Positions 6,001 through 12,000 of a stretch of DNA of 64,000 bases are shown here, piece after piece; the first letter of the stretch is position 1, and each line of letters opens with the position of its first letter. The stretch spans positions 1,130,068-1,194,067 of the forward strand of contig OZ244052.1 in NCBI GenBank assembly GCA_965215125.1, written 5' to 3'. Origin of the DNA: an uncultured candidatus Porisulfidus sp. (GTDB taxonomy: Bacteria > Pseudomonadota > Gammaproteobacteria > Poriferisulfidales > Oxydemutatoraceae). The position numbers are program-made.

Positions 6001-9000
6001 TTTCAATAACACCCTTTTCATCCGGCGAATCCATGAGTGGAAATTCTTCGGCAGGCAGACTTTTTAATTGATACTTTCCTCCTTCACAAGCAACTGTAAC
6101 AGAATTATCTTTGAAAAGCATGGAAATGTTACTATCCTCTGGGAAATTCCTAGATATTTCAAATATTTTTGAAACAGCAATAAGTTTTTTTTCGGGTTTC
6201 TCTATTGAGAGTTCCTCGGTAAAGCATCGTATTTGTGCTTCAGGCCCTTGTGTGAAAAAAAAGCATCCGTTATCGGAGGGAGAGATTAGAACCATACTTT
6301 GTGTTGGAAAGGTTGGACGCGAAGGAATGACCCCTTTAACGGAGGAAAGTATAGATAAAAGTTTTTTATTTTGTACAGTTATTTTCATACTATTATAATA
6401 TTTAATTAATCTATTTGTAGTTGTAGGTTATCCTTGTTTCTGTGGATATCTCTAAATTTTGTTGTGCCTATTATCTTTTATTTAAAGTTATCCTGTTAAT
6501 TATCGCTTATTTCGTTTGTTATTCAATGGTTTGTATATAGATATCCCCAATGTACTCACTGTTTATTGTTTGTTTTATTCAGTAGTTCAAAATTCTTAAT
6601 AAAGTTTTATAGGCTTGTTTTACATTTGGATCGCTTTCTTTTAGTTTTTTTATTGTCTTGCAAGCATGAAGCACTGTCGTGTGATCTCGCCTTCCGAAGG
6701 CTTTTCCAATTTCAGGCAGGCTCCGGTTTGTTAGTTCCTTAGAAAGCAGCATAGCCATTTGTCTAGGTCTAACAACGGAACGATTACGGCGGTTTGATAA
6801 CAAATCGTTCTGTTGTATGTTGTAGTATTCCGATGTTACCTTTTGAATGTTTTCTATCGTGAGTTGCCGGTTGTTGGCGGCAATCAAATCCTTTAGTATT
6901 TCCTTTACATAGGGCACTGTTGCCGGTTTTTTAGTAATTCCAATGGTTACTTGTATTCGTTTCAAGGCACCTTCTAGTTCTCGGATGTTGGATCGTATCT
7001 GTTGTGCGATGAAGAACGAAACCTCTTCGGAAAGCCCGAGCTTGTAAAGTTTGGATTTACTTAAAATGATGGCCGCGCGAGTTTCGAGTTCCGGTGGGTC
7101 TATTATTTGGGTTAAGCCGGAACTGAAACGTGACTTAAGGCGATCTTCTAGCCGGTCTATTTCTTTGGGATAACGATCACAGGTCATTACAATTTGACTT
7201 TTGCTACTGAACAGTTGGTTGAAAGTGTGAAAAAACTCTTCTTGGCTTTGCTCTTTACCGGCAAAGAATTGAACATCGTCCATCAGTAGCACATCAAGAC
7301 CTCTGTAATAACGACTAAACTTATTCATGTTTCCGGAGCGTAATGCTTCAACCATGTCCGAGACAAACTGTTCTGAGTGTAAATAGCGGACACGTTTTTC
7401 CGGAAAATTTCGGCTAATGGTATTCCCGATGGCGTGAAGTAAATGTGTTTTACCTAATCCGACGCTACTGTATATGAGAAACGGGTTGTACGAAACACCC
7501 GGCTGCGCTGCGACTTGCTCCGCCGCTGCGCGTGCCAACCGGTTTGATTTTCCTTCTATAAAATTATCGAAAATCTGATCCTTATTAATGAAGCTAACTA
7601 ATTGATTTTTCAATCTTTCTCTGCGTTCCAAACTAATCTCAGGTGGTGGATTGTTGTGGTTTTGTGCAAGAGTAAAAAGGACTTGACGTATATGTTCTAA
7701 ATAAATTGTGCTGACTTTTTCGTGTAGCAATTTATTTGGTGCGGAAAGTTTTATTTGATTTTTTGTTATCTCCACAGCCAACGGCCGTATCCATCTGTTG
7801 ATATCCTCTTCCGGAAGAAGGTGTTCTAGTTCTTTGATGCAAGCGTGCCAGAGTTTCATAAAATAGTTTCCTTATACTTAGTGTTGATTCTAAAAATCCG
7901 AGACAAATTATATTAGCATAGCTTAGCCATAAAGTTATAATAATTGTAGTCACTTGATAAGTCTCTAAATTTATAGAGGAAATTTATCTATAATAGCTAT
8001 AGACGTACCATACAACTTAACAAGTGAAAAAATAAGCGCAATAACCGAAAAATTTATTTGGATGCTAAACGATGGTAGAGCAAAAATTAAGAGACGATAA
8101 ATATCTCGTCTTCTCGATGACACAATGTAAATCCGGGATAGGACCGATACTTAAAGCCCTAAATGTTGTTTTCATGGAAGCCTTTGACTTAGGTAGAATA
8201 CCGGTAGTCGGTAGATTTGCCGTGCGCTCCGAGTACAATTTTTATTCCAGAAGGGATGACTTTAAGTTTGAAGATTATCTAAACTTGTCTGAAGGCACGA
8301 TCCGGCCGATCGATAAAGTGGACAGTATTGTAAAAAACGGTCAGAAATGGCTTAGAGAGGAGGATTTTGATATAGATCATTATGCCTCGGACAAAATACT
8401 TGATGTCGGTGATGAAGTTATCTCAGATGAGATGAATAAAAGTTATGATGTGATCGTTAGAAGAGACCCGACGCCCCAATACGCTAAAGACTATGCTAAA
8501 AAGAAACCGGCTTTTTTACTAGACTTTCCGTACTCGGAAAAGATAAACGAGCTGACCGACATAGTGCTCAAAACGATAGGAACGTCTAGAGAAAGTGCGC
8601 TCGCCGGGCAGTACTATTTTTGGGATAAGGTTGGCACGATGAGATCTTGCTTTGACGAGAAAACCAAGGCACGTGGAAGCAGTATCAGCTTAAGGGATGC
8701 ATATTATGCTTGTATGCATGTGGGAAACAAAAAAAATTATTCTCCGAAAGAAGCAAGAGTGCGCCAGTTTGCATTTTCCTCTAAACAGGTAAAAACACTA
8801 CTTGGTTATGCGATTAGCAAGGGTTCAAAGCTCTATATCATGTCCACGATACGGAACCCCCACTACTTTGATTTCTTAAAAGAAGATTATTGTGTTTATC
8901 GCTATCACGACTTCCCTGAATTAACACGGTTGGTCTCCGGCGAACAAGGATCGGCTGTTGATAATGTAATGCTTTATTTGGTTGAAAAGAATATTATGCG

Positions 9001-12000
9001 GCATGCGACAGTGAAGATTATCCCGCCTCGCAAAGGTATGATGATGTACCACTTAAACGAAGTTTATGATCTCTCTTTACTAAAGAATCCTCCCAAGCCA
9101 AAAGAGGAAAAACAACCCTCCGAGAATGGATAAAATATTTTTAACCGGACTTGAGGTGCAAACAACGATCGGCGTGTTTGAATGGGAACGGCAGATTCGC
9201 CAGAGTCTCCGCATTGATTTAGAGGCAACAACCGATGCCGCTAAAGCAGCCACCCGTGATCGCATAGACGATGCCTTGGACTATAAAGGTATTGCGAAGT
9301 ATATACAAAACTTTGTCTCTAAGTCCGAGTATCGACTGATAGAAACCTTAAGCCATAATCTTGCAGAGGCATTGATGCAGACGTTTGACATTAAATGGTT
9401 GCGCCTTTGTCTCAACAAAACCGGGGCAATCCGCGGTGCCCAGAGTGTCGGTATTTCAATAGAGCGCGGCACGCAATAACGTCTCAATGTCTAGAGTGTT
9501 CGTCGGTGTCGGCACGAATATCAACAAAGCACACAATCTTCGTTCGTGCTTTAGTACACTGCAACAGATATTTAGGAAGGTCGTAAAGTCGTCGGTATAC
9601 CAATCCGCCGCCGTCGGTTTTGAAGGAGAAGATTTTTATAATATGGTCGTTTCTTTCGAAACTACGCTGACTCCGAGCAATATAAACCGTATTTTTTTTG
9701 AAATAGAGAAGAAGCACGGTAGAAGGCGTGGCAAAAATCAATATGCCTCAAGAGAATTGGATTTGGACCAATTGCTTTACGATGATTTAATTGTTGATAC
9801 GGATGAGGTTTATTTACCACACAAGGATCTGAGTAAATATAGTTACACACTCAAACCGATGGCGGAAATTGCCGGTGATTTGGTGCATCCGTTGATAGGA
9901 AAGTGTTTCTCGGAATTGTGGCACAATCTCGATCGTCCGGCACCGATAACACATGTCCCGTTTGTGTGGGAGGTATAGGGCTACCAATTGGCCTATCGGC
10001 TCGATCGGCAGTCTTTGTTTCTGTGAAAAGACTAAAAATTACACAAATTATTTCATTATAAAAGTATCGGATTTTTACACGTCAACCAAGTTACACTTTA
10101 TGAGGACAAGCCATAGCTGTCCGACTTATTGGGCTATGTAAAGGTTCTGTTCACAGTTACGCCACTTGTTTTTGATATACGTATTGTTTTTAATGACCGT
10201 AGTATTTAGATTTCGTACGAGGTCACGCCACTTGCCCAACTGGAGCAAGTGGCGGATTAATTATGTAAAGTACGACCACCGTCTACAATAATGGTTTGAC
10301 CGGTGATGTAGTTCGCATCTCGCACCAAAAACAGCACGGCCGAGGCAATATCTTCGGGAAGTCCGGCTCGTTTGAGCATCGTGCGGTCTAGAACCTCTTG
10401 TTTTCTTTTATCGTTGTAATCGTTTTCGGGCCAAAGAATTGCACCCGGATAAACCGCATTGCATCGCACTCGGGGAGCCAGTTCTTTAGCCAGAGATTGG
10501 GTAATCATTGCCAATCCGGCCTTGCTTGCCGAGTAAACGGTGTGTTTTTTGAGCGGGCGGATTGCGTGTATATCGCCTATGTTGACAATGCATCCGCGCT
10601 GTTTGCTCAAGGCATCGGCAAGCGCACAACTTAAAAATAGCGGTGCTCTCATATTGATGTTGATTAGTTGTTGCCAATGCGCTTTGTCTAAGTTCCGAAG
10701 TTCCGTAGCATAAAAAGCCGAGGCGTTATTGATCAGCACATCCAAGTATCCCCAACGACTTTGTGCCGATTGTGCGAGTTCTTCTATCGCTTGTAGTTCG
10801 GATAAGTCGGCAGCAAAGGAACAAGCCGAGTCGGGGTGTTGCGCATTTAGGTTGTTGACGATTTTTAGCGCGTCGGCTGCAGAGTGATGATAATGCAAGA
10901 TCACCCGCATGCCGGCACGGTGTAGTGTTTTTGTAATCTGTGCGCCGATGCGCTTGGCGGCACCGGTGATTAGTACGACGGGTTGTTCATTTTTCACTAA
11001 ATTATGACTCCTGCTATGATAAGTGTTCCGATATAGTATATAGAAGTTGGCAATGGATCTTTTTCAAGCAAGTATTCTCGCGCTGGTACAGGGAATTACC
11101 GAGTTCCTGCCGATTTCAAGTTCCGCACATCTTATATTGGCATCGCATGTTTTCGGTTGGGGTGAAGGCTTTCTGGCATTTGATATTGCGGTACATAGTG
11201 GCACGTTGGCAGCGGTAGTCTTCCATTTTCGCAAAGAACTTATCAATATGATATTGAACCGTCCATCGGAGTTAACACTTTCGGTTGATCGAAATATCGG
11301 GTTGTTATTAATCGTTGCGTCCTTGCCGGTTTTTATCGTCGGTGCATTATTAAAGGATATAGTAGCATCCGAGTTGCGTAGCACCGAAGTGATTGCTGCG
11401 GCAACGATTATCTTTGCGTTTGTGTTGTGGTTTGCGGATTTACGAAGAAACACGACAGCGGTGCAGACGATAAATCTTAAGCAGGCGTTTATCATTGGTT
11501 TAGCCCAAACGCTTGCCTTAGTTCCCGGCACATCCAGGGCCGGCATCACCATCGCCGCAGCATTATTGCTCGGTTTGTCCCGTCGGCAATCGTTGATTTT
11601 TTCCTTTTTATTGGCGATACCGGTAATCGGTGCTGCCAGCGCATTGAACATCTGGGAAATACTGAACGGTTCGGGGATAAATGCGGCGTTGTGGTACCCG
11701 ATGGTTTTGGGGTTTGTTATTTCCGCGGTATTTGCATTGCTGACGATAAAATTGTTCATCCACTTTGTCGAAAAAATAGGGTTGCTGCCTTTCGTGATTT
11801 ATCGTATTTTACTCGGTATGATATTGTTTTTATTTATAACGAATTGAGTGCTTCAAGTTGTTGTTCGCGCACTCGTGCTTTTGCCTGCTCACCCGGTAAA
11901 TCCTGAAGACTTGAATCAAACTTAACTGTGGCAAGCACATCTATAGCGTGGGTAATGTGATTTATTTGAGGGTCTATATAGATGCCTTCGTAGTTGGATA

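Follow-up and report, generated by a model that had tools for sequence, protein, structure and literature searches.

Gene X (or X), the open reading frame (ORF) at 8072-9133 on the + strand of the 64-kb stretch of DNA analyzed here (the whole stretch is called the window), encodes a protein predicted to adopt the GT-B fold of the fucosyltransferase superfamily. It stands beside dnaA as a single-copy paralog of a tandem array located further along the window. The explanation that probably accounts for the gene as a whole combines this fold with membership of an old single-copy sister clade of the array, an active site released from constraint, and a link to the folate genes folB and folK that would derive from an inversion.

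Gene X was a genuine, expressed-looking core gene of a sponge-associated sulfur-oxidizing gammaproteobacterium, whose relatives carry the label Ca. Porisulfidus. It was not a chance ORF, given 19 cluster-representative orthologs (50-82% identity) and a ratio of nonsynonymous to synonymous substitutions (dN/dS) of 0.10-0.13 against five orthologs, which displays purifying selection. The ORF list and Pfam matches agreed with the initial annotation, which had described a 353-amino-acid ORF co-oriented with folB-folK and divergent from dnaA:

6579..7859, - strand: dnaA, divergent from X (Pfam Bac_DnaA, 4.9e-68)
8072..9133, + strand: gene X, ORF of 353 amino acids, predicted fucosyltransferase-superfamily-fold GT-B protein, single-copy dnaA-adjacent paralog
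9126..9479, + strand: folB, dihydroneopterin aldolase (Pfam FolB, 1.7e-30)
9487..9978, + strand: folK, HPPK (Pfam HPPK, 3.1e-26)
10257..10997, - strand: pteridine reductase (ptr; short-chain dehydrogenase/reductase), convergent with folK (NCBIfam NF006598, 344 bits versus a cutoff of 288)

The dnaA gene of the window shared 80-95% amino-acid identity with those of relatives at the compared loci, and folB-folK-ptr stayed together in every relative examined. Neither a signal peptide nor a transmembrane segment was evident in X by inspection, no predictor having been run, and X is therefore probably cytoplasmic.

Sequence models did not recognize X. No Pfam match was obtained for X or for any of its 84 close family members, an NCBIfam scan of X gave no match, a sequence-profile search of the PDB returned only RanBP2 (E=0.4), and a scan of JGI metagenomes with the X-clade alignment found no relatives. 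The AlphaFold2 model of X, built from an 84-sequence alignment, reached a mean predicted local distance difference test (pLDDT) of 81.6 and a predicted template modeling score (pTM) of 0.81, and displayed the two-Rossmann-domain GT-B fold of the fucosyltransferase-type superfamily (GT65/GT68/GT23/GT11). The best 42 Foldseek matches of this model in the PDB were all fucosyltransferases (POFUT1/2, NodZ, FUT8 or AtFUT1), with POFUT2 5foe at the top (E=3.7e-7); their probabilities were mostly 0.94-1.00 (lowest 0.77), with a template modeling (TM) score of about 0.4. Matches in BFVD, a viral structure library, were also O-FucT-like, and the AlphaFold2 model of the first array copy gave the same fucosyltransferase-fold outcome.

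A profile search with the family alignment over 1.84 billion cluster representatives (E<=1e-3) recovered 301 relatives. The motifs HVRRGD, MSDE and PDNYLL..VE were present in the distant ones, of which 18 of 96 matched PF10250 (GDP-fucose protein O-fucosyltransferase; best 5.2e-8) and 1 of 96 matched PF01531 (Glyco_transf_11, GT11). Alignments of the close family and of the distant relatives were joined by hhalign with a probability of 100 (E=1.6e-50), HVR being aligned to HVRRGD, so that the link of X to these curated models is transitive only, through distant relatives. With this limit, the fold matches and the transitive O-FucT matches bear out the initial description of the family as fucosyltransferase-like, and the predicted structure places X in the GT-B fold of the superfamily that includes POFUT1/2, NodZ and FUT8.

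Searches for homologs of X returned three tiers, at 50-82%, 41-49% and 27-35% identity. Five family modules were located in the window by tblastn (8072, 59363, 60450, and two within 61609-63807), X being the fifth and not the sixth copy that had been counted; no sixth module was found in the window, distant-tier queries included. The other four modules formed the array:

59363..63807, + strand: array of four modules (proteins of 360 amino acids, 394 amino acids, and a 732-amino-acid fusion of two), HVR retained, sister clade of X

X shared 46-48% identity with the array modules of the window. In a neighbor-joining (NJ) tree of 86 sequences (500 bootstraps), the dnaA-adjacent X clade (20 sequences) was monophyletic in 500/500 replicates, the array clade (44 sequences, the four array modules of the window among them) in 499/500, and both together were separated from the outgroups in 500/500. 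The split between X and the array predated all sampled genomes, and every long contig holding an X-clade member held exactly one, alongside array or distant-tier copies. The initial annotation had asked whether a phylogeny of the modules would place the copy at 8072 as root or as leaf; it took neither place, being an ortholog within an old sister clade instead of the base of the local array or a late offshoot. Judged from its sequences, the array itself is no rapidly evolving expansion but is old and stable, since each of its modules had a cross-genome ortholog at 75-83% identity. Selection on X (dN/dS as above) was of the same order as on folB (0.09-0.21) and folK (0.10-0.12), compared with 0.03-0.08 for dnaA. 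The reading frame was intact in 20/20 X-clade members, with 81 invariant columns.

Alignment columns were compared between the X clade, the array clade and the outgroups, and three sites of X were distinguished:

8627..8692, + strand: clade loop, codons 186-207 (KVGTMRSCFDEKTKARGSSISL), near-invariant in the X clade, variable and partly deleted in the array clade
8717..8731, + strand: degenerate motif I, H216-V-G218-N-K220, aligned to HVR / HVRRGD of relatives (hhalign)
8846..8848, + strand: T259 in motif II, Thr for the Asp of "MSD" (D259T), in the window copy alone

In CePOFUT1, His238 of the H-x-R motif contacts guanine, while Arg240 contacts the beta-phosphate and takes part in catalysis; R240A abolishes GDP binding, R240K abolishes activity, and alpha-1,2 and alpha-1,6 fucosyltransferases likewise cannot do without the equivalent Arg (PMC3180450). 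The corresponding position 218 was R in 42/42 array and 21/22 outgroup sequences, versus only 2/20 in the X clade (Q5/T3/P3/G2/S2/R2 and others), and it was the sole column conserved in array and outgroups yet not in the X clade. His216 was retained in 13/20 X-clade sequences, and Lys220, two residues after the Arg position, was specific to that clade (17/20). The motif reads YYACMHVGNKKN in X and YYACMHVR in the array paralogs, which agrees with the degenerate Arg motif noticed at first; X thus lacks the H-x-R(-R)-x-D signature with its catalytic Arg for the donor beta-phosphate. The window copy also lacked motif II, in which (S/T)-D-(D/E) comes after a hydrophobic strand, and read LYIMSTI where Asp259 was present in 18/19 other X-clade and 42/42 array members.

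Next to the lost Arg, the loop followed the pattern K186-V-x-T-M-R-S-C-F-D-E-x-T-x-x-R-G-S-S-I-S-L207, with K186, V187, T189, R191, S192, C193, F194, D195, T198, R201, G202, S203, S204 and I205 invariant in the X clade. Its mean conservation was 0.88 in the X clade versus 0.51 in the array clade, and its pLDDT in the AlphaFold2 model was low (48-60). At the level of the alignment, the H-x-R donor-binding/catalytic motif was released from constraint in the X clade. One catalytic residue freed, a new constraint beside it and overall purifying selection together point to a change of function, a re-tooling of the clade, rather than to decay. X would no longer work as a canonical GDP-sugar transferase. 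It could, without catalysis of its own, bind sugar nucleotides or acceptors as a partner of its catalytic paralogs or regulate them, or it could be an enzyme whose phosphate contacts have shifted to new basic residues.

Compared with known enzymes, X resembled POFUT1 and POFUT2 (CAZy GT65/GT68; PF10250) in its best structural matches (5foe, 4ap6, 3zy5) and predicted two-Rossmann GT-B architecture, and its distant relatives matched PF10250 and carried H-x-R-R-x-D at the start of the C-terminal domain. It differed from them in that neither X nor its 84 close members had a direct Pfam or PDB sequence match, the TM score being as low as stated above, and in lacking the Arg that matches CePOFUT1 Arg240; it is moreover bacterial, with no evident signal peptide, and no S-T-F donor-phosphate motif was recognizable at its C-terminus on inspection of the alignment. 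The same fold class linked X to NodZ/FUT8 (GT23) and GT11, with 3six, 2hhc and 6x5s among the best matches and a three-motif layout in the family consensus (HxRRxD; hydrophobic strand plus S/T-D-D/E; D...E helix), and one distant relative matched PF01531. Unlike NodZ and FUT8, X reads HVGNK rather than HVRRxD, and the window copy MST rather than MSD; SH3 or coiled-coil additions were absent, and X did not lie in a nod or glycan-synthesis cluster. As the architecture fits but motif I is missing from X, and motif II from the window copy too, X is not filed as a fucosyltransferase and is best described as a divergent and probably non-canonical relative.

Nine loci carrying X were compared (window, L001-L005 and L010-L012). 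The one conserved neighbor of X was dnaA, divergent and upstream in 9/9. Downstream, folB-folK followed X in 5/9 loci (window, L001, L002, L003, L005), all of one subclade, so that X did not show the conserved folB-folK adjacency expected of a folate-operon member. L004 had purH-rho-mnmE-yidC behind X. In L010, L011 and L012, which belong to two deeper subclades, a type III secretion system (T3SS) operon lay 121-194 nucleotides downstream on the same strand, in the order SctB-like translocator, sctW (HrpJ/TyeA), STAS protein, yscX, yscY-like gene, sctV. A 356-371-amino-acid gene following X in these three loci was considered as a second family member and rejected, as it is the SctB-like translocator. 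The same operon was found inverted in the window (22987->17045, - strand; 60-94% identity by tblastn), and the inverted segment is bordered at its far end by a TnpB gene:

17045..22987, - strand: T3SS operon (SctB-like translocator, sctW, STAS, yscX, yscY-like, sctV)
23192..24400, + strand: TnpB (IS200/IS605 OrfB), with Pfam OrfB_IS605, Cas12f1-like_TNB and HTH_OrfB_IS605

A conserved block, folB-folK-ptr-uppP-cca-(423/562 amino acids)-IpgD, traveled as a unit and was seen in L003, L013 and L014. In the L010 genome, X and the block were on opposite strands, about 30 kb apart, and the block adjoined hslVU, whereas in the L004 genome it adjoined a giant adhesin gene; two genomes had folB-folK-ptr without X, beside hslVU (L013) or beside a giant adhesin (L014). 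The window reads X / folB...IpgD(-) / sctV(-)...translocator(-) / TnpB(+), the layout that inversion of an L010-type segment with a breakpoint just 3' of X would yield. In the ancestral layout (dnaA <- / -> X -> T3SS), X would then have been divergent from dnaA and followed on its own strand by the T3SS translocator/gatekeeper operon. With one of its ends directly downstream of X, the inversion would have moved the folB...IpgD block to its place behind X and reversed the T3SS operon. The TnpB gene, with the flipped T3SS operon directly on one side and an rnf/nqr-type operon on the other, is a candidate marker of a rearrangement breakpoint.

On this comparison of gene orders, the folate link is best explained as a by-product of inversion and not as a sign of shared function, and would say nothing about what X does. 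The capture of the gene into a fol operon, as first proposed, was right in that a rearrangement would have made the union, but had the direction reversed: X was the resident beside dnaA, and the folB-folK block would have been brought to it. The initial annotation had asked whether rpmH-rnpA-yidC or another gene normally occupies the slot upstream of dnaA; X itself occupied it in all nine loci, and only what followed varied (folB in five, the T3SS in three, purH in one). Of the observation that had been named as refuting the initial interpretation (a conserved single-copy X fused to the fol operon in relatives, with no effector-like expansion), the first half was seen, but the relatives also carried arrays.

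The junction and the upstream region of X held the following features:

9126..9133, + strand: overlap of the X stop and the folB start, ATGGATAA, with translational-coupling geometry
7860..8071, intergenic: dnaA-X spacer, 212 bp, AT-rich (27% GC), with a dnaA-proximal half conserved in an alignment of 9 spacers
7913..7941, + strand: promoter-like TTAGCA-17-TATAAT pointing into X, 10/12 consensus matches, in the conserved part of the spacer

X ends ...GAG AAT GGA TAA, its stop (9131-9133) lying 5 nucleotides past the folB ATG (9126), which confirms the 8-nucleotide overlap and operon-like arrangement reported earlier. L001 and L002 had the same overlap ATGGATAA. In L005 it read GTGGATAA, folB starting there with a GTG that the gene caller had overlooked; L003 had a 17-nucleotide spacer in its place and a shorter X. 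No terminator-like site was found on the + strand within 8072-9978, so that X-folB has the geometry of a coupled pair, as in operon fusions of the ATGA/TAATG type made by rearrangement. It departs from these in that the overlap is of 8 nucleotides rather than the common 1 or 4, and that no clear Shine-Dalgarno sequence precedes folB closely, coupling being suggested by geometry. The site at 7913-7941 is a likely promoter of X-folB-folK. After the inversion, the X-folB spacer would have shrunk to the present overlap, and folB-folK appear to depend on X for transcription, most likely from this conserved promoter, and probably for translation initiation, by termination-reinitiation. No DnaA box with <=1 mismatch was present in the spacer of the window copy, hence no oriC or DnaA regulation is claimed there.

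Several observations weigh against this explanation. Loss of Arg218 is no proof of lost activity, as K220, R191 or R201 could substitute, and the Arg is still present in two X-clade members (P0011 and P0018). The promoter match was not statistically exceptional (4 sites found versus 6.3 expected in shuffles). For the ancestral states, the argument draws on nine loci and on an NJ tree whose resolution at the base of the X clade is shallow. Finally, one inversion does not by itself turn the L010 layout into that of the window, as hslVU, which flanks folB in L010, is absent from the window and L010 has about 16 kb of extra DNA between sctV and IpgD; both differences imply further events beyond one inversion.

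A bolder proposal for the released active site, and a rather unlikely one, is that X became a neofunctionalized pseudo-glycosyltransferase, which gained its Arg/Cys/Ser-rich loop (KV.TMRSCFDE.T..RGSSISL) once the donor-phosphate Arg was lost and turned into an origin-proximal core gene of sponge-symbiont gammaproteobacteria. It would be either a GtfB-like, non-catalytic specificity or regulatory subunit for the intact array paralogs or a protein with a new chemistry other than glycosyl transfer. That X formerly headed the T3SS translocator operon would then reflect a role in host interaction. GtfB is a non-catalytic GT-B paralog that partners GtfA in the glycosylation of streptococcal serine-rich-repeat proteins. 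Similarly, X lost donor-site residues yet was conserved, and co-occurred with at least one HVR-bearing copy in long contigs. It differs from GtfB in belonging to another GT-B subfamily and in lying about 50 kb from its putative partners, and a partner role for X may be suggested by analogy.

It is likewise doubtful that X is a T3SS substrate or T3SS-associated factor born at the head of that operon, with the array paralogs acting as glycosyltransferase effectors on sponge host proteins or glycans. The window encodes the following genes of this kind:

21878-22987, - strand: SctB-like translocator, 369 amino acids, with a hydrophobic hairpin
20729-21850, - strand: sctW, fused HrpJ+TyeA (Pfam)
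17045-19174, - strand: sctV, 709 amino acids (Pfam FHIPEP)
14375-16963, - strand: IpgD/SopB-family protein (Pfam IpgD, 6e-54)
56144-58999, - strand: IpgD/SopB-family protein (Pfam IpgD, 1.2e-64)

A T3SS role would fit the order of L010-L012, where X is followed on the same strand by the SctB-like translocator and sctW...sctV, and the presence in the window of that T3SS together with the two IpgD-family proteins, which are likely phosphoinositide-phosphatase effectors. The array begins 363 nucleotides from the second of these, and the predicted C-terminal helix of the first array copy (329-359) could target membranes, the tails of array proteins looking basic and amphipathic by inspection. Nevertheless, the AlphaFold2 model of X had its first Rossmann strand at residues 11-21, with only residues 1-6 below a pLDDT of 50, and the array copy was alike; a fold starting at about residue 11 is too close to the N-terminus for a typical disordered secretion signal and chaperone-binding region to precede it, and X thus lacks the disordered N-terminus of a T3SS effector. 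Arrays of other genomes (after dsr; after thyA-folA-apbC-dcd; at zapA/rne; at mfd/tkt) had no secretion genes in their neighborhood. X and the array modules were as conserved between genomes (75-83% identity) as folB and folK, unlike typical fast-evolving effectors, and in the clade of the window X would now drive housekeeping genes and hence be expressed constitutively. No relevant paper on fucosyltransferase-type T3SS effectors of symbionts came up in a literature search. The effector status initially proposed was therefore not supported, considering the early start of the fold, the arrays amid housekeeping genes and the housekeeping-level conservation. In the window, X is now 9 kb from the T3SS operon, on the opposite strand.

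The initial annotation had also proposed the dnaA-adjacent locus as the ancestral home of the whole family, from which copies departed to form arrays. This has little probability. The X and array clades are sisters, so that one ancient duplication links them, and the X locus was the positionally most stable member (9/9), but outgroup members (P0066-P0088; L006, L008, L009) and basal array members (L015) were never beside dnaA. The ancestral HxR was kept by arrays and outgroups and lost only in the X clade, which makes X the derived form, and cross-genome orthologs of each array module indicate that the array has a long history and is no recent product of X. Together with the 500/500 support for the sister relationship, these observations do not support an expansion of the array from this locus.

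A role of X in pterin or folate metabolism, for instance as a pterin/neopterin glycosyltransferase or a regulator, which would account for the fusion with folB-folK, is more improbable still. The 8-nucleotide stop/start overlap with folB was kept in four genomes, a pteridine reductase lies just downstream, a distant-tier array follows thyA-folA in L006, and purH stands behind X in L004. Against this, folB-folK-ptr occurred without X in two genomes (L013, L014), X occurred without a downstream folB in 4/9 loci, their adjacency was confined to one derived subclade, and the donor-binding Arg required for glycosyl transfer is missing from X. Known pterin glycosyltransferases belong to other GT-B families, recognized by Pfam, whereas X has no Pfam match. 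The pterin-glycosyltransferase idea was rejected on synteny.

That X is a decaying pseudo-paralog kept only as a promoter-bearing 5' leader for folB-folK has a negligible probability, since the absence of the motif I Arg (G218) and of the motif II Asp (T259) from the window copy and the lack of room for a promoter of folB's own are outweighed by a frame intact in all 20 clade members, and the reading is largely refuted by the dN/dS of 0.10-0.13 and by the 81 invariant columns, the clade-specific loop among them, X being equally conserved where folB is not downstream.

In other genomes, independent tandem arrays held 3-4 family members each (L006 3604-8074, L008 7001-11646, L015 7710-11026). 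They were located after thyA-folA-apbC-dcd in L006, between zapA and rne in L008, and after the dsr sulfur-oxidation operon in L015, while family copies of L009 lay between mfd/csiV and tkt-gap-pgk. Their presence at these sites indicates that arraying is a habit of the family, not tied to effector islands. In the window, the first two array genes (59363-61634) shared 93-97% DNA identity over their 3' third and 61-77% elsewhere, which resembles a gene-conversion tract. The 732-amino-acid ORF (61609-63807, + strand) was an in-frame fusion of two modules, and its TTG start overlapped the previous gene by 26 nucleotides; multi-module proteins also occurred in relatives (P0016, 548 amino acids; P0089, 891 amino acids). 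The C-termini of array genes (60340-60445, 61460-61634) encoded long basic tails, amphipathic by inspection, and the AlphaFold2 model of the first copy had a helix at residues 329-359 (pLDDT about 78), whereas the X clade ends instead in a short Pro/Lys-rich tail. This predicted C-terminal helix may anchor the array proteins to the membrane.

Other observations concern the surroundings of X. The GC skew changed sign near 6 kb, where its cumulative minimum over positions 1-12000 was also found, which fits a replication origin near dnaN/dnaA; dnaN and dprA were on the strand opposite to X in the ORF list, dprA and not recF-gyrB coming after dnaN. L001 had three tandem ORFs between folK and the pteridine reductase (7951-11347) that were absent from the window; they had signal-peptide-like N-termini and resembled FGE-sulfatase (formylglycine-generating-enzyme) proteins by inspection, and matched neither the X family nor the window. 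The T3SS operon of the window also held a 131-amino-acid ORF, and the IpgD-like protein at 56144-58999, which borders the paralog array, carried the CX5R motif CKSGKDRTG. Between cca and the other IpgD-like gene, a 423-amino-acid protein (13049-14320, - strand) had no Pfam or NCBIfam match; its counterparts in relatives, of 526-580 amino acids, were about 40% identical to it in the first 300 residues, and it may be a fast-evolving effector candidate.

A family without Pfam or NCBIfam model is now placed in the fucosyltransferase fold, with its catalytic motif identified. The family is narrow: a set of 1.84 billion proteins yielded about 300 cluster representatives of it, and it is concentrated in sponge-associated sulfur-oxidizing gammaproteobacteria. 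It offers a clean case of paralog divergence, in which one family-wide residue, the catalytic Arg, was freed in one clade and a new near-invariant loop arose beside it. The apparent folate operon fusion, as a probable by-product of an origin-proximal inversion, calls for caution in annotation, since guilt by association would mislead here. The fusion itself is ordinary rearrangement biology, and the chief interest lies in the freed Arg with its new loop and in the strict adjacency to dnaA. Should host or surface targets turn out to be glycosylated by the array paralogs, the family would matter for the recognition of sponge symbionts.

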